Shown here: positions 19,958 through 54,317 of the stretch, in pieces | Layout: the number at the start of each line of letters is the position of its first letter | Numbering within the stretch: position 1 is the stretch's first letter | Source of the DNA: Candidatus Helarchaeota archaeon | GTDB lineage: Archaea; Asgardarchaeota; Lokiarchaeia; Helarchaeales; RDOG01 | DNA length: 64,000 nt | Direction: 5' to 3' | Assembly (NCBI GenBank): GCA_019058315.1 | Contig: JAHPZH010000003.1 | Span: 137,669 to 201,668, forward strand | Notes under the pieces: generated by a model | The model's input: the letters and a program-made list of their open reading frames with translations, nothing else | Told to the model about the DNA's origin: nothing | Database searches by the model: none | Position numbers and translations under genes: made by a program

Positions 19958-20587
19958 TTAAAGTCTTTTTAAAATTTCAATAGCTGCAACTTTCCCATCT
20001 TTAATTAGAAATCTAAGTCCATATGAATTATTAAAGAGAATCCCATCTGGAAGTTCTGTAGTTTTTTGAATTTCAGTGTTCACTACTTCCTTTCCCAGAA
20101 CTTTGGCAACACTTTTAACAACTCCATAAAAATCCTGTCCTAGAATGATCGCTTCTCTATCAAAGCCATCAGGAATTCCCTCTCCCATTAATGTATTTCT
20201 CATATCATCAGATAGTGTTTGAGTTATTACACCAACTTCTTCTTCAACTTCACCTTCAGCCATTGGAGGTCGTGCTTTGGCTTGGGGGTTTTCAGCAACT
20301 TCTTTCTCATAAATTGATTTAAATTCGTCAGGTTCTTCATCTTGATCAACGGGGATAACTTTATACATTAAACCCCTGCCACCTCTTACTTCTTGGGAGA
20401 TCCTTGCACCGATGAATTTCTTTGCTACAGAACATTTATTGCCCTTCCATAACCATATTAGTCTTGTATCATCATCAATTATAAGTAGTACTAACTCATT
20501 TTTTAGAGCTTCTTTAACAGATGGAGTTTTTAAGTATGTAGTTTCGCCCGTTTTGAGCACAGAAAAAATTTCCAAACTTTTCACCAT
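19958..20587 (-). CDS. Asgard single-domain gelsolin fused to domain X (1DGelX-type)
   Basis: LLIIDDDTRLIWLWKGNKCSVAKKFIGAR...VDQDEEPDEF gelsolin-domain signature plus C-terminal REAIILG...AIEILK domain. Confidence 0.85.
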   Translation of the reverse strand: MVKSLEIFSVLKTGETTYLKTPSVKEALKNELVLLIIDDDTRLIWLWKGNKCSVAKKFIGARISQEVRGGRGLMYKVIPVDQDEEPDEFKSIYEKEVAENPQAKARPPMAEGEVEEEVGVITQTLSDDMRNTLMGEGIPDGFDREAIILGQDFYGVVKSVAKVLGKEVVNTEIQKTTELPDGILFNNSYGLRFLIKDGKVAAIEILKRL

Positions 20588-20739
20588 TTGAGCTATTTAA
20601 TAGTAAATATACAATATTATCCTTCATTTTTATTTTTTCTGATTTAATGTTTATTTATTCATTATGAGTATTAAAAGTTTCCTTAAATTGAAGATTAAAG
20701 GAGGTGATTTAAACAGATATTAATTCGATTATAAAGAGA

Positions 20740-43574: not shown

Positions 43575-44462
43575 GTGGAAAAAAAATTTGGAAAATTATT
43601 TGAAAAAGAAAAGATTGACAGGATTTTGAAACTTTTATCTGAATATTTTGAAAAAGATGATGAAGAATTATTATTAGAAAATATAGAATATCTTGAAAAA
43701 CTATGTTTTACAATTAAAGAGAAAGAATGGGTCTTTTCGAAAGATATTATTGATATCATAATTAAAAATTTGAATAATAAATGGTGGCATGTTCGTCAAG
43801 ACCTAATTATTCTTATCGGTAAAATAACTGAACTTTTTCCCAAAGAATTAATTCAGATAGATTTAGAGCCTATTATTGCTCAATTAAAAGAGATTTTTAT
43901 TAGCGATAATGACGAAGATAACAGATACCACGCTCTCAGAGTAATTGGAAAAGTTGGACTTATCGCACCTAATAAGTGTTTGCAATTCCTACTAAATCAA
44001 TTATATGATCCCAATCCTAAAATACAAGTATATTCTATTAATGCTTTGACTGAAATCGCAAATCAACATATAGGAGAAGTTAAGGAAATATTACCATTCC
44101 TTACAGAAAGCCTTCAAAAAGAGAATAAAGATCCTTTTGTAGTTCCAATTTTAGAAGAAGCAATAAAAAATATTAGTGAACATCTTTATGATGAGAAAAT
44201 TACCGACTTTATGACGACAGAGCTAATATCTTGTCCTTATTGTAAGGAATTTTATCCTGCTAAATCCGATGTATGTACAAATTGCGGAAGAGAAGTAGCT
44301 AAGTGCATAATCTGCGGACAAAAATTACAACATGAAACAGATATGAAACCATGTCCTTATTGCAAAACAATTTTCCATAAAAGACATATTCTAGAATGGG
44401 TACAAGACAAACATAATTGTCCCTCTTGTATGCGTTCCTTGTTTGAAGAAGATTTGAAATAA
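43575..44462 (+). CDS. HEAT-repeat protein with C-terminal zinc ribbon and RING-like domain
   Basis: WHVRQ..IGKI, DNRYHAL.VIGKV, DPNPKIQ..ALTEI repeats; CPYC..CTNC; CIIC-x12-CPYC-x4-H-x2-H..LEWV..CPSC. Confidence 0.8.
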   Translation: MEKKFGKLFEKEKIDRILKLLSEYFEKDDEELLLENIEYLEKLCFTIKEKEWVFSKDIIDIIIKNLNNKWWHVRQDLIILIGKITELFPKELIQIDLEPIIAQLKEIFISDNDEDNRYHALRVIGKVGLIAPNKCLQFLLNQLYDPNPKIQVYSINALTEIANQHIGEVKEILPFLTESLQKENKDPFVVPILEEAIKNISEHLYDEKITDFMTTELISCPYCKEFYPAKSDVCTNCGREVAKCIICGQKLQHETDMKPCPYCKTIFHKRHILEWVQDKHNCPSCMRSLFEEDLK

Positions 44463-46531: not shown

Positions 46532-47440
46532 TTGAATATGGTTAAAGACGTTAAGCTAGAAGGTAATTTTGTTGCTTTAATTACTCCATTAGACAAAAAT
46601 TTAGAAGTTGATGAAGACGGAATACGTAAGCTTGTGGATCTTCAAATTAAAAATGGAATACATGGTTTAGTTCCTATGGGAACTACTGGTGAAAGTGCAA
46701 CCATGTCTCATCCAGAGCATAGAAAGATAATAGATATTGTTGTAGATCAAGCTAAAGGAAGAGTTCCAGTTATGGCCGGAACAGGATCTAATTCAACAGC
46801 CGAAGCTATTGGACTTACTCAATATGCATTAAATGCTGGAGCAGATGCCTCCCTATTGATTTCACCTTATTACAATAAGCCAACACAGAGAGGTTTGATC
46901 CATCATTTCACGAAAGTTGCAGAATCAGCAAAGGAATTACCAATTTGCATTTATAATGTACCTGGTAGAACTGGTCGAAATGTTGAGGCAGCAACGACTA
47001 TTAAATTATCAAAAATTAAAAATATTGTAGCAATTAAAGAAGCTTCAGGAAATGTTGGTCAAATCATGGATATTATCAATGGTACAGATGAAGATTTTAC
47101 AGTATTGTCTGGTGATGATTCTTTAACTTATACAATATGTACATTAGGTGGAAAAGGTGTTGTCAGCGTTGCTTCGAATGTCGCAACTAAACTTGTATCG
47201 GAGATGTGCGAAAAATTACTTGCAAACGATTTTATTGGGGCAAGAAAATTACATTATAAACTATTGGATTTGTTTGGGATTTTATTTATCGAAACTAATC
47301 CAGGACCTGTAAAAGAAGCTGCAAAATTAATGAACCTTGCTGGAATTTCAAATTGGTATTTACGCCCACCCCTAATAGCATGTACCCCAGAAAATTCTGA
47401 TAAAATTAAGAAAGTTTTACAAGATCTCAAATTACTTTAA
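46532..47440 (+). CDS. dapA: 4-hydroxy-tetrahydrodipicolinate synthase
   Basis: GTTGE, PYYNKP, YNVPGRTG, IKEASG, SGDD, ETNP. Confidence 0.97.
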   Translation: MNMVKDVKLEGNFVALITPLDKNLEVDEDGIRKLVDLQIKNGIHGLVPMGTTGESATMSHPEHRKIIDIVVDQAKGRVPVMAGTGSNSTAEAIGLTQYALNAGADASLLISPYYNKPTQRGLIHHFTKVAESAKELPICIYNVPGRTGRNVEAATTIKLSKIKNIVAIKEASGNVGQIMDIINGTDEDFTVLSGDDSLTYTICTLGGKGVVSVASNVATKLVSEMCEKLLANDFIGARKLHYKLLDLFGILFIETNPGPVKEAAKLMNLAGISNWYLRPPLIACTPENSDKIKKVLQDLKLL

Positions 47441-47455
47441 TTTAGGTGAGAAATA

Positions 47456-48268
47456 GTGATAAGAGTCTGCGTCAGTGGCGCTGATGGAAATATGGGATCG
47501 CTTGTAGTTAAATATGTAATTCAAGATCCGGAAACAGAGTTAGTTAGTGCTCTGACTATGCAAAATTCACCCAATATAGGCAAAGATGCTGGAACATTAG
47601 TAGGTCTTGAAAAAATTGGTGTTAAAATTTCCGATAAGATTTCTGAAGTGCTTGATGCTAAGCCTGAAGTATTTATTGATTTCACTGTTGCATCAGCTGC
47701 TGAGGCAATTGTTCCAAAAGTATTAGAAAGAGGAATTAATTGTATTATAGGTACTACAGCCTTATCTAAAGATTTTATAAAGAATTTCGAAGATACTGTA
47801 AAGAAAAAGGGAATTAAAGGAATGATATCTCCAAATATGTCATTAGGTGTAAATCTTTTCTTAAGTATTGCAGGAGTTCTCGCATCTAAATTGAGTGGTT
47901 ATGATATTGAAATAATTGAAGCACATCATCATCGTAAGAAAGATAGTCCTAGCGGAACTGCAGCTAAACTAGCTGGAATAATTGCTAAAGCAATTGAAAA
48001 AGATTTGGATTCTATTGTTAAATGGGGAAGACCTAAAGGAATGACAAAACGTAAAATTGGAGCAGAAGAAATTGGAGTTCATTCTATACGAGGTGGAGAT
48101 ATAGTCGGAGAACATACGGTACTTTACGCTGGACCTGGTGAAAGAATTGAATTAATTCATAGAGCTCACAGTAGAGAATGTTTTGCAGCAGGAACTGTTG
48201 AAGCTATAAAATTCATAATGGAACAAAAAAAACCCGGAATTTACCAAATGAGCGATTTGATTTCATAG
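47456..48268 (+). CDS. dapB: 4-hydroxy-tetrahydrodipicolinate reductase
   Basis: GADGNMG, IDFT, GTT, EAHHHRKKDSPSGTA, RGGDIVGEH. Confidence 0.97.
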   Translation: MIRVCVSGADGNMGSLVVKYVIQDPETELVSALTMQNSPNIGKDAGTLVGLEKIGVKISDKISEVLDAKPEVFIDFTVASAAEAIVPKVLERGINCIIGTTALSKDFIKNFEDTVKKKGIKGMISPNMSLGVNLFLSIAGVLASKLSGYDIEIIEAHHHRKKDSPSGTAAKLAGIIAKAIEKDLDSIVKWGRPKGMTKRKIGAEEIGVHSIRGGDIVGEHTVLYAGPGERIELIHRAHSRECFAAGTVEAIKFIMEQKKPGIYQMSDLIS

Positions 48269-48431: not shown

Positions 48432-49739
48432 ATGATAGAATTTTTAAAACAAAAGAATTTAGAAGTAAAAAAGAACCATCTATTTATTGGTGGTTGTGAT
48501 TGTGTTGAATTAGTAGAAAAATACGACACACCCCTTTATGTAATTAATAAAGACACAATAGTTCAGAGATATCATTCATTAAAAAATGCTCTACTTGAAC
48601 ATTATGATAAAATTGAAATCCATTATGCTGCAAAAGCCAATACAAATATGTCTATTTTAAAGTTATTAAATGAAGAGGGAGCCCATTTAGATTGTGTTAG
48701 CACGGGTGAAATTTATCTCGCTTTGAAAGCAGGATTTGCTCCCGAGAAGATTTTATATACAGGGAATAATTATAGAGATGACGAATTTCAATTTGCCTTG
48801 GAAAAGGGAGTTATGATAAATTTAGATGCTTTATCCCAAATAAAGAGGTTAGTTAATGTCTTAGATGCTGTAAATATGGAGAAACCATTGATTTCATTCC
48901 GTGTTAATCCTGAATTTGGTGGTGGATTTCATGATCATTGCATTACAGCGGGTCCAGATATTAAATTTGGTATTTTAGATAGTGAAATCATAGAGGCATA
49001 TAAAAAAGCTCAGCAATATGGGTTCACAAAATTTGGGATCCACACTCATATTGGTTCAGGGATATTAGATATAAGTACTTTTAAGGTTGCGGCTCAAAAA
49101 TATTTAGATATAATAAGTAAAATAAAAAAGAATCTTGATATTGATTTTGAATTTATTGATTTTGGAGGCGGACTTGGTATCCCCTATCGGCCATCCGAAA
49201 AGCCATTAGACTTGAATGAATATAGTACTTCAATTTTGGATCTATTTAAAAAGAAAATCGAAGAATTGAATTTAAATGGGCTAATATTTTCTATTGAACC
49301 AGGCAGATATCTCGTTGCTGAATCTACAATTATTCTTTCACAAGTTAATACTATTAAAGAAACACGAACTAAAAACTGGATTGGTATAGATGCAGGATTT
49401 AATGTGCTTGTAAGACCCACAATGTATGGAAGTTATCATGAAGTAGTTGTAGCTAATAGAGTGGGGGTAAAAGGTAAACAATTAAAATATGAAATAGCTG
49501 GGCCAATCTGTGAATCTGGTGATGTAATTGCCAAGGATAGAACCCTCCCAAAAATTGAAGAAAATGATTTAATTGCTATTTTAGATGCGGGGGCATACGG
49601 ATTTAGTATGAGTTCCTCGTATAATTCCAAATTACTTCCTGCTGAAATTATGGTAAGCAATGGAAAATCGCAAATCGTAAGAGAAAGACAAGTTTATGAA
49701 GATTTAACCCACCATCAACATTTTTACCAAGATTTATAA
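48432..49739 (+). CDS. lysA: Diaminopimelate decarboxylase
   Basis: YAAKAN, HIGS, DFGGG, EPGRY, GPICESGD, GAYG..M.S.YN. Confidence 0.97.
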   Translation: MIEFLKQKNLEVKKNHLFIGGCDCVELVEKYDTPLYVINKDTIVQRYHSLKNALLEHYDKIEIHYAAKANTNMSILKLLNEEGAHLDCVSTGEIYLALKAGFAPEKILYTGNNYRDDEFQFALEKGVMINLDALSQIKRLVNVLDAVNMEKPLISFRVNPEFGGGFHDHCITAGPDIKFGILDSEIIEAYKKAQQYGFTKFGIHTHIGSGILDISTFKVAAQKYLDIISKIKKNLDIDFEFIDFGGGLGIPYRPSEKPLDLNEYSTSILDLFKKKIEELNLNGLIFSIEPGRYLVAESTIILSQVNTIKETRTKNWIGIDAGFNVLVRPTMYGSYHEVVVANRVGVKGKQLKYEIAGPICESGDVIAKDRTLPKIEENDLIAILDAGAYGFSMSSSYNSKLLPAEIMVSNGKSQIVRERQVYEDLTHHQHFYQDL

Positions 49740-49789: not shown

Positions 49790-50590
49790 ATGGAAGAATT
49801 AAAAAAACGATTGGAAGAGAGAGAAAACGAATTAAATATTAAAAATAAACTTATAAAGAGCAAGACTGAAGAAATCGCTGAATTAAAAAAGGAAATAGAG
49901 GATTATAAGGCTGCAAAAGATGCAAAAACCATCAGTCAATACGAATCCAAGTTTAATACGTTAGAAGAGAGGATTCAAGATAAAGATGCACGAATTACCA
50001 ATTTAGAAAAAAGTATTAAACAATCAAATGACTTACTTTCGGAATATAGAGATTATAAAGAAAAATTCGAAAAATTACAAAAAGAATTTGATGAACAAAA
50101 TTCTAAACTCAAAGATCTGGAAAATATTAAAGCTGAATTAGAAACAAAGAATCGTGATCTAACTTATAAAGTTGAAAATTTGGAAGAGAGATTAGAGAGA
50201 GAAATAAAAAGTCTTAAGGCAGTTCATCAAAAAGAAATTGAAGAAATTGAAACAGCACACTCAGAAAAGGTAAAATCTTTAAAATATAAACTAGCACCAA
50301 CACAAATTTTTCTGAAATATGCAAATAAACAATTTGTAAGAGCAATGACACGTCCAAATGAGGGAATAATTCTAATATTGGACGAAACAAAGCAAAAATG
50401 GATACTTGATTATTCATTGGAACCAAATTTAATCGAACGAAGAACTGCTGAACGACAAGCGCGTAGTATTGCAAAAACAGGATTTAATATCGGTGGAAAC
50501 CGTGTTGGAGTAAGATATCAATTAGAAATAGCTGAACAAAGCATAGTTCCAGAAAAACTCCTTCGAGATCAACATAAATATAATGTTTAA
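49790..50590 (+). CDS. Long coiled-coil protein with C-terminal globular (possibly gelsolin-like) domain
   Basis: aa 1-165 coiled coil; C-terminal ILILDETKQKWILDYSLEPNLIERRTAERQARSI. Confidence 0.75.
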   Translation: MEELKKRLEERENELNIKNKLIKSKTEEIAELKKEIEDYKAAKDAKTISQYESKFNTLEERIQDKDARITNLEKSIKQSNDLLSEYRDYKEKFEKLQKEFDEQNSKLKDLENIKAELETKNRDLTYKVENLEERLEREIKSLKAVHQKEIEEIETAHSEKVKSLKYKLAPTQIFLKYANKQFVRAMTRPNEGIILILDETKQKWILDYSLEPNLIERRTAERQARSIAKTGFNIGGNRVGVRYQLEIAEQSIVPEKLLRDQHKYNV

Positions 50591-50704: not shown

Positions 50705-51877
50705 TTGAAAATATTTTCTAGTGACCGCGTAAATGCTATAGGATCTTATGCTTTTGCTGAAGTTGACAAGATGGTTGAACATTTGATAAAAAAAGGTATT
50801 AAACCATTGGATTTTGGAGTTGGTGATCCACAAGCTCCAACACCAGATTTGATTAGAGAAGCTTGTAAAAAAGCTATTGATAATCGAAAGACAAGTGGCT
50901 ATCCAACATATACAGGAAGTCAAGAATATAGAGAAGCGATTTCAAAATGGATGAAAAAAAGATTTAATCAATATTTAAATCCTGATACAGAAATTACAAG
51001 TTCACTTGGTGGGAAAGAAGCGGTTTTTAACTTTCATTTTGGCTTTGTAAATCCTGGAGATATTGTTTTTGTTCCAAATCCTGGCTATCCTCCAGGGGAG
51101 CGTGGTACTATTTTTGCAGGGGGAAAACCGATTCTTCTACCTTTGAAGGAAGAAAATGATTTTTTAGTCGACTTAGATGCAATAAAAAAGGAACATGTAA
51201 AAAAAGCTAAAATTTTATGGATAAATTACCCAAATAATCCTACAGGAGCTGTCGCAACAGAAGAATTTTTTAAAGAAGTAATTGATTTTGGTCATGACAA
51301 TAATATTATTATAGCATCTGATGAAGTATATTCCGAACTCTATTATAAGGAAAAACCAAAGAGTATTTTAGAATATGATCGTGAGGGAATTGTTGTTATA
51401 CAATCATTATCAAAGAGAAGTTGTATGACTACATATAGGGTGGGTTGGCTTGCCGGAGATGAAAATGTTATATCCATAGTCAAAAAAGTAAAAACAAATA
51501 TAGATTCCGGAACTTGTTGGTTCATTCAAGATGCAGCTATTGCAGCCCTCAGTGATGAAGAGCATGTTAAAGTGATGCAAGAGGAATACAAACAAAAAAT
51601 GGATATCATGATCTATGCCTTGAATGAAGTTGGATTAGAAACAAGATATCCCAAAGCCACCTTTTATATATGGCAAAAAACTCCAGATAATATGTCATCT
51701 CTAGATTTTGCAAAAAAATTATTGCAAGACAAACTCGCAATCGTAACCACTCCTGGAGCTTGGATATCAAAAGAAGTTGATGGAGAAAACCCAGGAGAAG
51801 GATTTGTTCGTTTTGCTCTAGTTTCTTCTATTGAGCAGACGAAAGAGGCTGCAGAAAGGTTGAAAAAATACTATTAA
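50705..51877 (+). CDS. dapL: PLP aminotransferase class I, probable LL-diaminopimelate aminotransferase
   Basis: FGVGDP, SLGGKE, INYPNNPTGA, SLSK, KTNIDSG, PKATFYIW; clustered with dapAB and lysA. Confidence 0.85.
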   Translation: MKIFSSDRVNAIGSYAFAEVDKMVEHLIKKGIKPLDFGVGDPQAPTPDLIREACKKAIDNRKTSGYPTYTGSQEYREAISKWMKKRFNQYLNPDTEITSSLGGKEAVFNFHFGFVNPGDIVFVPNPGYPPGERGTIFAGGKPILLPLKEENDFLVDLDAIKKEHVKKAKILWINYPNNPTGAVATEEFFKEVIDFGHDNNIIIASDEVYSELYYKEKPKSILEYDREGIVVIQSLSKRSCMTTYRVGWLAGDENVISIVKKVKTNIDSGTCWFIQDAAIAALSDEEHVKVMQEEYKQKMDIMIYALNEVGLETRYPKATFYIWQKTPDNMSSLDFAKKLLQDKLAIVTTPGAWISKEVDGENPGEGFVRFALVSSIEQTKEAAERLKKYY

Positions 51878-52285
51878 TTATTTTAATTTATAATTACAAT
51901 TATAACAAATGTCCGAATAAGGTGAATTGGTAACTCCACAATTTAGGCATTTATATTTTTTCTCTTGCTCTTTTAACCATTGCTCTAAGCCAATTTCTTT
52001 TATTTTTAATGAATTTTCAATCAAGTCTATTTTATATTTATTTTTATAACGAGTATCTAGATATTTTCGTATCTTACAAGGAAAATCTTTACATTCATAA
52101 CAAAATGTCAGTTTATTTTTCTCTAAACAGCATTTTCGAATTTTACAATTCCATTTTGATATGCGTTTTTGTGTTTTATTTTGGGAAGCGCACCCATAAC
52201 AAGTCCCCTTTTTGTAAGAGGGACAGCCACCACAATAAACTCCGCAAGCTGAAGCTAGGCTTTGTGATTCAGTTCTATTTTTCAT
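51878..52285 (-). CDS. DUF3795 Cys-rich protein
   Basis: CGVYCGGC, CYGC, C.IRKCC, CYECKDFPC. Confidence 0.85.
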   Translation of the reverse strand: MKNRTESQSLASACGVYCGGCPSYKKGTCYGCASQNKTQKRISKWNCKIRKCCLEKNKLTFCYECKDFPCKIRKYLDTRYKNKYKIDLIENSLKIKEIGLEQWLKEQEKKYKCLNCGVTNSPYSDICYNCNYKLK

Positions 52286-52376: not shown

Positions 52377-54317
52377 ATGATTTTTGGAAATATGGGAAAA
52401 TATTTAAGGATCAATCTTTCGACTGGAGAAATTAAGCAGGATGATCTAAATGAAGATTTATATTTTAAATATTTAGGAGGATATGGGATAAATAATAAAC
52501 TTTATCATGATTTTAGAGTCCCGAAAATTGATCCATTCAATCCGGATAGTCCAATAATAATTGGGGTAGGTGCCCTAGTAGGCACAAAATTTCCCGGAAG
52601 TGGTAAAGTAGTTGCAACTTACAAATCACCGATTATTAGCAAACCTAAACAAAAAATTCATTTTATTGATAATGCAGTAGGTGGAAGTTTTTTATTTGGT
52701 AAAATGTTAAAAAAAGCAGGATTTGACCATATAATTATTACGGGGAAAGCAAAAAAGCCTACAACAATAAAAATTTTCGAAAATGATTTAGAGTTACTCG
52801 ATGCACGAGATGTTTGGGGATCTTTAGATTTATATGAAACCAGTTTTTTTTATAAAGATAAATTTCCGAATTGTGGTACAATTTCAATAGGTGAAGGAGG
52901 AGAGAAAAAAGTAAGATATGCTATATCCATAGTTGATTGTATGGCCACATTAGGAAAGTTCGGTTTTGGGGCAGTTTTAGGTTCGAAAAATATCAAATCT
53001 ATAATTACATATGGAAAAAAGAAAATTAAAATTAAAGAGAAAGATGAATTAACGAAATTAATAAAACCTATACAAGAAGGTGTTAAAAATATACCAATTT
53101 TAAGTCAATTTAGGAAATATGGTATAAATTCTGGATTTGATTTTCAAGCACCTTTAGTAAATGAAGGGAATTTTCCATTTAGGGAATGGAAAAAACTTTA
53201 TGGGCTCCGACAATTGAAAAAAGTAAAGGGCGATTTTAATATAGCTTGTAATGCTTGTCTTTTAAAGTGCAGAACAAGTTTTGAATTAAAAGATGGCCCA
53301 TATAAAGGATTAAAGAATTATTCTGGAAGTTTTTTTCTGCCAGCAAGGATTGGAAATCGTTTAGAGATTAAGGATGCAGATAGAATATCTAAAGTTGTAA
53401 AATTATATGATATTTGTAATAGGGCAGGAATTTGCTTTTTTACTGCAACTGGATTGATTAATTGGATTACAAGACTATATAATTCAGGTAAGATTGATCC
53501 GAATAAGATAAAACTTGATTTAAAAAGGGAATTTCCAATATATCTAAAAATTTTAGAAAAAATTTTACAGCGTTCGGATATTGGTGATATTCTTGCTGAG
53601 GGTTGGTACCCAACCGGAGAATATTTTAATGCAGATCCTGATTCTTTTGCCGAAGGCGTAGGCTTCTTTAAAGGAACAGACACAATTCAAGATGGCCGTT
53701 TCACCACCATAGATCCTCAACGTTTTACATATATTACTAATCCACGTCCCCATCATGGAGGAACACAATCAATATATACAATACCTAGAATGGGGATAAA
53801 GGTGCTTCAAGAAGATTTATTGAATATGGGAGTAACTAAAAAAGAATATGATAAAGTCTTCACTGAAACTCCTTATTATGGTCCATTTAATGTTGCTTTA
53901 TACGGAAAACATGCTGAGGATGTAATGGCAGTCCATAATAGTCTTGGAACTTGTATAGTCTATACTTTATTTAGTTTAATTTCAATTCAAGTCTTAGCAC
54001 CAATTTATTCCGCTATCACAGGTAGAAAAACATCCCCTAAGGAATTAAAGAAAATCGGTGAACGAAATTTCAATTTTTATAAGATGTTAAATATCTATGA
54101 AGGATTTTCTTCTAGAGATAAAAGCTCAAAAATTTGGTTAATGCCCCGGAACACTCCTGATGGAGCTTTTTCATTAAATAATTATTATAGGACGAAGGAA
54201 TTATCTTCTGAAGACATAGAAAATCTAATAGATGACTATTATAAAGAACGAGGTTGGGATTCAAACGGTAATCCTACAAAAGAAAAATTAAAAGAGCTAG
54301 AATTGAATTTTTTATAA
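52377..54317 (+). CDS. Aldehyde:ferredoxin oxidoreductase (AOR family, divergent)
   Basis: LRINLS, YLGG.G, KSP, GAVLGSKNIK, CNACLLKC, YYKERGWD.NG.PT.EKL. Confidence 0.9.
   Translation: MIFGNMGKYLRINLSTGEIKQDDLNEDLYFKYLGGYGINNKLYHDFRVPKIDPFNPDSPIIIGVGALVGTKFPGSGKVVATYKSPIISKPKQKIHFIDNAVGGSFLFGKMLKKAGFDHIIITGKAKKPTTIKIFENDLELLDARDVWGSLDLYETSFFYKDKFPNCGTISIGEGGEKKVRYAISIVDCMATLGKFGFGAVLGSKNIKSIITYGKKKIKIKEKDELTKLIKPIQEGVKNIPILSQFRKYGINSGFDFQAPLVNEGNFPFREWKKLYGLRQLKKVKGDFNIACNACLLKCRTSFELKDGPYKGLKNYSGSFFLPARIGNRLEIKDADRISKVVKLYDICNRAGICFFTATGLINWITRLYNSGKIDPNKIKLDLKREFPIYLKILEKILQRSDIGDILAEGWYPTGEYFNADPDSFAEGVGFFKGTDTIQDGRFTTIDPQRFTYITNPRPHHGGTQSIYTIPRMGIKVLQEDLLNMGVTKKEYDKVFTETPYYGPFNVALYGKHAEDVMAVHNSLGTCIVYTLFSLISIQVLAPIYSAITGRKTSPKELKKIGERNFNFYKMLNIYEGFSSRDKSSKIWLMPRNTPDGAFSLNNYYRTKELSSEDIENLIDDYYKERGWDSNGNPTKEKLKELELNFL

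Follow-up and report, generated by a model that had tools for sequence, protein, structure and literature searches.

Introduction

Gelsolin-type domains have been described from Asgard archaea in three arrangements – ProGel, 1DGelX and 2DGel – and nine InterPro-annotated gelsolin-homology proteins are listed for L. ossiferum (PMC7444086, PMC9433394, PMC13716822). ProGel (PDB 7C2F; Akil et al. 2020, PMC7444086) is a single Asgard domain of ~90 aa with the gelsolin/cofilin fold and without the extra helices of cofilin. It bundles filaments and docks on the G1/cofilin site of actin, its affinity for G-actin is weak (Kd ~337 µM), and ProGel, gelsolin G1 and cofilin all occupy the actin subdomain 1/3 cleft (PMC7444086). 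In 1DGelX a gelsolin domain is paired with a predicted coiled coil (PMC7444086), and the protein illustrates how added segments extend gelsolin function to severing and bundling (Akil et al. 2020). Published Asgard gelsolin inventories have been keyed on the WxG signature or on InterPro annotation (PMC9433394, PMC13716822).

The gelsolin-like domain of Sec23/Sec24 has the gelsolin fold and a non-actin partner (Sar1/Sec31), which shows that the fold can be repurposed. Cultured Asgard cells have dynamic, actin-filled protrusions. An oligomerising rod with two actin-binding heads is the plan of cortexillin, alpha-actinin and drebrin/Abp1, in which the heads are CH or ADF-H domains. No actin cross-linker or tether is described in the Asgard literature that we searched.

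Here, we analyse a gene for a 266-residue protein in a 64,000-nucleotide stretch (the window; G+C ~30%) of an Asgard archaeal genome of 5.8 Mb in 12 contigs. The C-terminal head of the protein is predicted to be, like ProGel, a single gelsolin/cofilin-fold domain without extra cofilin helices; ProGel is its best structural match, and most of its relatives are likewise stand-alone proteins of ~100 aa. ProGel keeps DWG/WxG and is recognisable by sequence as a gelsolin, whereas the head is without WxG, is ~10-12% identical to ProGel in structural alignments, has no PF00626 match and has invariant arginine and glycine positions of its own; the 266-residue protein also has an added N-terminal coiled coil of 165 aa. 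The ProGel class consists of stand-alone proteins of ~90 aa with DWG; the protein falls outside it, and its stand-alone relatives are without DWG too. 1DGelX resembles the protein in joining one gelsolin-type domain to a predicted coiled-coil region, but there the gelsolin domain is N-terminal, the X region is C-terminal, and the domain is a canonical gelsolin, 35% identical to ProGel. The order is reversed in the 266-residue protein, which stands outside the 1DGelX class as well. An earlier note on this DNA knew of no such architecture among described Asgard gelsolins, and a rod with a WxG-less head indeed lies outside ProGel, 1DGelX and 2DGel (PMC7444086, PMC9433394); neither the WxG-less family nor the N-terminal-rod architecture is mentioned in the Asgard gelsolin literature searched (PMC7444086, PMC9433394, PMC13716822). 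Because its members have neither WxG nor a Pfam match, the family may well be missing from published counts.

Results

A complete gene in a lysine gene cluster

The gene is flanked by lysA and a DapL-like aminotransferase gene, all three on the same strand:

46532-47440, + strand: dapA, upstream of the 266-residue gene
47456-48268, + strand: dapB, upstream of the 266-residue gene
48432..49739, + strand: lysA, diaminopimelate decarboxylase (TIGR01048, 443 bits, above the cut-off)
49790..50590, + strand: complete gene (P0001) of 266 codons plus stop, with an ATG start, from the open reading frame list
50705..51877, + strand: DapL-like class I/II aminotransferase, the downstream neighbour

The sequence quoted in the earlier note is present exactly in this frame, and orthologues of the same length and with the same start are 88, 82 and 67% identical; the gene is real and under constraint. 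Depositors' names differ among near-identical proteins (Hod-, Hel- and Promethearchaeota). An overlapping antisense frame of 86 aa (50214-50474) was regarded as incidental to the AT-richness of the coding strand.

Spacers of 50 bp and 114 bp separate the gene from lysA and from the aminotransferase gene, respectively. The best NCBIfam models for the aminotransferase are those of LL-diaminopimelate aminotransferase, with 430 and 410 bits, under their cut-offs. In four genomes (that of the window, L002, L001 and L020) the gene still adjoins the orthologous aminotransferase gene; lysA and an aldehyde:ferredoxin oxidoreductase (AFOR) gene accompany the pair in L002, and the pair stands without lysA in L001. 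Family members in Loki-type and f10 genomes have other neighbours, and the aminotransferase adjacency is not kept there; an f10 aminotransferase was considered as an orthologue of that in the window and rejected, being only ~28% identical. The place of the gene inside the lysine cluster thus appears to be inherited, lineage-restricted synteny and not a functional link. The earlier description of the gene as inserted in the lysine gene cluster is correct as to position, given the lysA and DapL-like flanks, and does not extend to function, given that the adjacency is lineage-restricted.

Other genes in this part of the window include one for a Cys-rich DUF3795 protein downstream of the lysine cluster (51878-52285, - strand) and, beyond it, the AFOR gene (52377-54317, + strand) whose adjacency is kept in L002. 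On the other side, 43575-44462 (+ strand) encodes a 295-aa protein in which HEAT repeats precede a RING-type zinc finger, making it a candidate for a eukaryote-like E3 ligase.

A predicted coiled-coil rod

The protein can be divided as follows:

49790..50284, + strand: predicted heptad coiled-coil rod, aa 1-165 (AlphaFold2 helix and heptad score)
50285..50302, + strand: predicted flexible linker between rod and head, aa 166-171 (pLDDT <50 at residues 164-170 of the full-length model)
50303..50587, + strand: predicted divergent gelsolin-homology domain, aa 172-266, ~95 aa (AlphaFold2, Foldseek, VIA-align, ESM Atlas shape search, homologues, and homology through a bridge group)
50429..50479, + strand: predicted long helix of the head, aa 214-230, NLIERRTAERQARSIAK, where conservation within the family is highest
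50480..50587, + strand: predicted post-helix hairpin and tail, aa 231-266, with G231 (invariant), R238 (95%) and G240

AlphaFold2, run on a 14-sequence full-length alignment, predicts one unbroken helix from aa 2 to 165, with pLDDT mostly >90. Heptad periodicity was scored as core hydrophobics at a/d minus other positions, using the best register in each 28-residue segment, and gave 0.528 compared with 0.246±0.035 (maximum 0.357) in 200 shuffles, ~8 standard deviations above. The model and the periodicity together bear out the ~165 aa of continuous coiled coil proposed previously, and aa 2-165 have the true heptad periodicity and, as modelled, the long uninterrupted helix of a two-stranded coiled coil. 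The register falls into three blocks and is broken near aa 33, 76 and 127. Pfam and NCBIfam searches over aa 1-170 gave only sub-threshold matches to coiled-coil families, and a single-alpha-helix (ER/K) reading is ruled out by the clear hydrophobic periodicity at a/d. At ~0.15 nm per residue, the rod would by arithmetic be ~24 nm long; because a lone helix of that length is not stable by itself, we infer that the rod oligomerises.

Sequence features of the head

The family is represented by a 43-sequence alignment (A1), in which the conserved positions are F182, L195, D198, R218, R222, S226, I227, G231, R238, G240, P254, L257, H262 and Y264. Helix 214-230 is the counterpart of the long helix of the gelsolin fold, and within it R222 is conserved at 98%, R218 and S226 at 79% each, and I227 at 81%. 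A tail motif near the C-terminus, P254-x2-L257-L...H262-x-Y264, appears to sit in place of the EPxxF short helix of gelsolins. D198 is 84% conserved and, by our reading, seems not to lie at a calcium ligand position. The DWG/WxG at the end of the third strand is absent; D207-Y208-S209 occupy the W-x-G positions, in agreement with the earlier remark that the motif is lacking, and no conserved glycine is found in this column across the 43 members.

Searches with single sequences and family models pass the head by. It is not matched by PF00626 (gathering score 21 bits), aa 165-266 have no Pfam family at E ≤ 10, and no Pfam family matches ten other members of the family. There is no NCBIfam match to the head, and searches of PDB sequences (phmmer and profile) gave nothing meaningful, matches to PCNA (E 0.37) and Sap1 (E 0.04) being treated as noise.

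Predicted fold of the head

AlphaFold2 modelled aa 160-266 with a pLDDT of 77, with 41 residues at 90 or above. In the model, four strands lead into a helix of 17 residues, after which come three short strands and a short helix at the end, and this topology, E-E-E-E-H-E-E-E-(H), recurs in the full-length model (pLDDT 85). As modelled, it has the mixed beta-sheet packed on one long helix and the short C-terminal helix of a gelsolin domain.

The first Foldseek match in the PDB is 7c2f, Thorarchaeota ProGel with actin (E 8.2e-4, TM 0.66 by target), and the matches listed are gelsolin, villin, adseverin, fragmin, CapG and Asgard 2DGel, with ADF as the single exception. VIA-align, which is independent of Foldseek, was run against 48,161 representative chains and also places 7c2f first (Z 9.5, rmsd 2.2 Å, 73 of 88 residues); the background stated for the tool is Z 7-8, below this value. 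Ranks 2 to 32 are gelsolin or ADF-H domains, bar one Sec23a/24a chain, and the scores are 9.5 for ProGel and ~7 for gelsolin, against 4.0-5.7 for Sec23/24. ESM Atlas searches by shape and by feature led to Asgard clusters, some of which partly carry PF00626, and to eukaryotic villins. The predicted fold of the head is therefore that of gelsolin and cofilin, closest to Thorarchaeota ProGel, with ProGel ranked first by two aligners. A Foldseek comparison of the C-terminal domain had been suggested as a check, and a gelsolin/ADF-H fold is what it predicts.

The sixth row of the ESM Atlas shape search is a 387-aa Promethearchaeota cluster with Rho_N/SAP/HeH nucleic-acid-binding motifs, whose model matches the head with TM 0.60. 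This cluster may be a fusion of a gelsolin fold to DNA-binding modules.

Homology to canonical Asgard gelsolins through a bridge group

The window encodes a second gelsolin-type protein, which served as the comparison segment of the earlier note:

19958..20596, - strand: genuine Asgard gelsolin, its canonical gelsolin domain extended at the C-terminus

This protein has 209 aa and a 1DGelX-like layout, and phmmer matches it to Thorarchaeota ProGel (7c2f, E 2.6e-7) and to 2DGel3 (E 1.7e-7); the Pfam Gelsolin model gives E 0.17 only. The ungapped alignment that had been proposed between it and the head contains 5 identities in 40 residues and is not significant alone, but its register agrees with that of the hhalign and bridge alignments. 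Direct hhalign of A1 against the eight Pfam-verified gelsolin domains of the genome gave a probability of 20% (P 0.001), in the same register.

A stronger connection comes from a group of weaker A1 matches in the genome, proteins of 250-310 aa that we refer to as the bridge group. Their N-terminal domain combines the WLWxG of gelsolins with the RRTAxRQAxS helix of the family, for example VWLWYGSSQGLVARRTALRQAES. By hhalign, the bridge group matches A1 over 87 columns (98.0%, E 2e-13) and the eight Pfam-verified gelsolin domains over 61 columns (97.7%, E 1.8e-12); since the bridge sequences were chosen as weak A1 matches, independent evidence comes from the canonical-gelsolin match alone. In the fetched loci, an HMM built from the bridge group recovers canonical gelsolins as well as every family member. 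Homology of the head to canonical Asgard gelsolins is thus supported transitively at the level of sequence profiles and not by fold alone, and the description of the domain as divergent and gelsolin-like, made before these comparisons, agrees with both the predicted fold and the profile homology.

The bridge proteins (e.g. C6:118111-119064) have in common with the head family the long RRTAxRQAxS helix and the hairpin that follows. They differ from the 266-residue protein in keeping WLWxG, in having the domain at the N-terminus, joined by a Pro-rich linker to a small domain at the C-terminus, and in lacking a coiled coil. The small C-terminal domains of three groups with this domain, linker and C-domain arrangement were compared with one another, and a relationship among them is unsupported (hhalign probability ≤3%). 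Through the bridge group, sequences grade from canonical gelsolin into the WxG-less family, which helps to trace how gelsolin/cofilin domains diversified before eukaryotes.

Distribution and architectures

An exhaustive HMMER search with aa 160-266 against 1.84 billion representatives yielded 54 proteins with E ≤ 1e-3, of which 21 reach E ≤ 1e-10, and all named homologues are from Asgard archaea. There are three architectures: a coiled coil followed by the domain (250-420 aa), the stand-alone domain (~95-140 aa), and an N-terminal domain joined by a Pro/Ser-rich linker to a small domain at the C-terminus (180-300 aa). Matches to A1 at E ≤ 1e-5 occur in 262 of 301 sampled Asgard genomes, and in 83 of the 90 of high quality. 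With the strict family taken as E ≤ 1e-12, ~195 of the 301 genomes have members by our own count of the table, and the other ~65 have bridge-type matches. Most strict copies are open frames of ~95-140 aa, and two or three copies per genome are common. The head is no isolated case: its family is present in most of the Asgard genomes sampled, mostly as stand-alone proteins of ~100 aa, and the coiled-coil fusions are a lineage-specific variant of it. Annotation misses this WxG-less family, even though about two thirds of the sampled genomes carry members. A second coiled-coil member, of 384 aa, is encoded in the source genome at C5:321492-322646.

Co-absence of the family with actin was looked for and rejected, as five genomes without the family all have Lokiactin; the family is accordingly not an obligate actin partner. 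Lokiactin of the source genome is encoded at C5:296580-297686.

Neighbourhoods of family members in other genomes

In genus g44 (L049:6010-6858, L050, L059 and L060) a stand-alone gene is followed on the same strand, 28-56 bp downstream, by a Ras/Arf GTPase gene, which makes co-transcription of the two probable. Members in f31 and f29 (L029; L037/L066) likewise have a GTPase gene directly beside them, and in three further loci one lies within ~1 kb. With ~90 small-GTPase frames in the 5.8-Mb genome, adjacency by chance is expected at a few per cent per locus.

None of the 55 loci examined for strict family members has an adjoining profilin or actin gene. A bridge-type gene adjoins a profilin gene both in the source genome and in a distant Asgard family. 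The profilin gene at L007:908-1282 (Pfam Profilin, E 1.3e-4) precedes by ~150 bp the bridge-type gelsolin gene L007:1429-2382 (317 aa; the same as C6:118111-119064), whose product combines WLWMG with an RRGSMRAARS helix and a run of PPPPP; a distant 1.4-Mb Asgard genome (L072) has this pairing as well, in convergent orientation. These pairs may represent a module of profilin and gelsolin in which polyproline provides a docking site. In six f10 loci the stand-alone member has a canonical gelsolin gene at a distance of 3.6 kb.

A gene for a 592-aa protein with no Pfam match follows the stand-alone gene in f10 (L052:4141-5919, - strand, with equivalents in 10 f10 loci). Read from its sequence, this protein is SNAP/TPR-like at the N-terminus and coiled-coil-like at the C-terminus; the surroundings in f10 include a Cdc48/Vps4-like AAA ATPase, a GH38 mannosidase and the canonical gelsolin gene.

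Discussion

A candidate cytoskeletal linker

We favour the view that the 266-residue protein is a cytoskeletal linker, in which an oligomer of the coiled-coil rod presents divergent gelsolin heads on actin, and give this a probability of about 0.5. Each chain would consist of the rod, a short flexible linker and the head, and the ~165 N-terminal residues would form the ~24-nm rod of an oligomer, most simply a dimer. The head would bind Lokiactin through its long conserved helix, by homology with ProGel, gelsolin G1 and cofilin, and the oligomeric rod would make the protein bivalent, able to bundle or cross-link filaments or to tether them to a contact of the rod's free end. The protein is a plausible actin cross-linker or tether, as the earlier note had put it; the likeness to cortexillin, alpha-actinin and drebrin/Abp1 is one of function only, and there is no sequence relationship. 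Counted in favour of an actin linker are the adjacency of bridge-type and profilin genes, the proximity of canonical gelsolin genes in f10, and a second rod-plus-gelsolin protein in the genome (see below). Counted against it are the loss of WxG and the failure of PF00626 to match; the weak actin affinity of ProGel itself; the Lokiactin genomes that do without the family; and the positions R222, G231, R238 and G240, which are invariant in the family but lacking in canonical gelsolins, and are compatible with a changed ligand. A gelsolin fold is also no guarantee of actin binding, Sec23 being the precedent (PMC7444086, PMC10298408).

The changed ligand could be a GTPase. The head would then bind or regulate a small GTPase of the Ras/Arf type, a conserved arginine (R222 or R238) acting at the interface as the Sec23 gelsolin-like domain contacts Sar1, and the rod would scaffold GTPase signalling and not actin. 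The arginine finger of Sec23 is located in its gelsolin-like domain. Disappearance of WxG together with the gain of family-specific arginines and glycines fits this proposal, as do the GTPase genes beside stand-alone members in g44, f31 and f29 and close by in three further loci, where chance would give adjacency at a few per cent per locus; Sec23/24 gelsolin-like domains are among the fold matches, and the Sec23 gelsolin domain contacts Sar1p (PMC10298408). ProGel and gelsolin nevertheless score clearly above the best Sec23/24 value of 5.7, and Sec23/Sec24 is a five-domain COPII subunit whose other domains are absent here. No GTPase gene neighbours the window gene, its orthologues or the members in most f10 loci, small GTPases are numerous in Asgard genomes, and related genomes are non-independent observations. 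We consider a GTPase-binding head in place of an actin-binding one unlikely. GTPase linkage and actin binding are not exclusive, and an ARF GTPase was co-precipitated with Lokiactin in L. ossiferum (PMC13716822). Two further proposals take up other features of the locus. A nucleic-acid or chromosome-associated coiled-coil protein of the SMC/Rad50 kind, its arginine-rich head helix binding DNA or RNA, is suggested by NCBIfam SMC, ASRP and Rad50 models (E 5e-7 to 1e-3), by four arginines in the head helix and by a head pI of 10. The SMC/Rad50 scores, however, are 18-28 bits against cut-offs of 300-1000 and cover the coil only; the protein has neither the ATPase head nor the hinge of that class, the median head pI of the family is 5.9 with many acidic members, and no nucleic-acid-binding folds are found near the top of the VIA-align matches, all of which makes this proposal very improbable. 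A part in lysine biosynthesis, for example as a scaffold of the DAP-pathway enzymes of the dapA-dapB-lysA-dapL cluster, would account for the same-strand position, the short spacers and the kept aminotransferase adjacency; we find it scarcely credible, given the pair without lysA in L001, the other neighbours in Loki-type and f10 genomes, the location of the genome's paralogue elsewhere, and a coiled coil and gelsolin fold that suggest nothing metabolic.

If, as the actin-linker reading has it, the heads bind Lokiactin, the Asgard toolkit gains a class of small ProGel-like regulators, and the coiled-coil forms become candidate filament cross-linkers or tethers. The proteins of the family are small and soluble-looking, which makes the hypothesis directly testable. 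A bolder combination, which we regard as a long shot, is that the WxG-less family is an unrecognised branch of the gelsolin superfamily coupling small-GTPase signalling to Lokiactin, with the coiled-coil forms as the first prokaryotic bivalent cross-linkers or tethers. Stand-alone members would in that case act with the adjacent Ras/Arf GTPase through the conserved arginine, in the manner of Sec23 and Sar1, and actin architecture under GTPase control would then have an archaeal forerunner in this system.

Other gelsolin-domain architectures in the genome

The second rod-plus-gelsolin protein, of 411 aa, is encoded at C2:124922-126157 (- strand). It contains a coiled-coil stretch of ~220 aa and a CxxC...CxxxxC zinc ribbon, and at its C-terminus is a gelsolin domain of the canonical type (PF00626, 21.8 bits). 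As this is an independent rod architecture, the combination of rod and gelsolin arose at least twice. Zinc ribbons also occur at the N-termini of two other gelsolin proteins: one of 362 aa with three gelsolin domains (C5:760305-761393, + strand), and one of 222 aa with a single gelsolin domain (C5:1361784-1362452, - strand).
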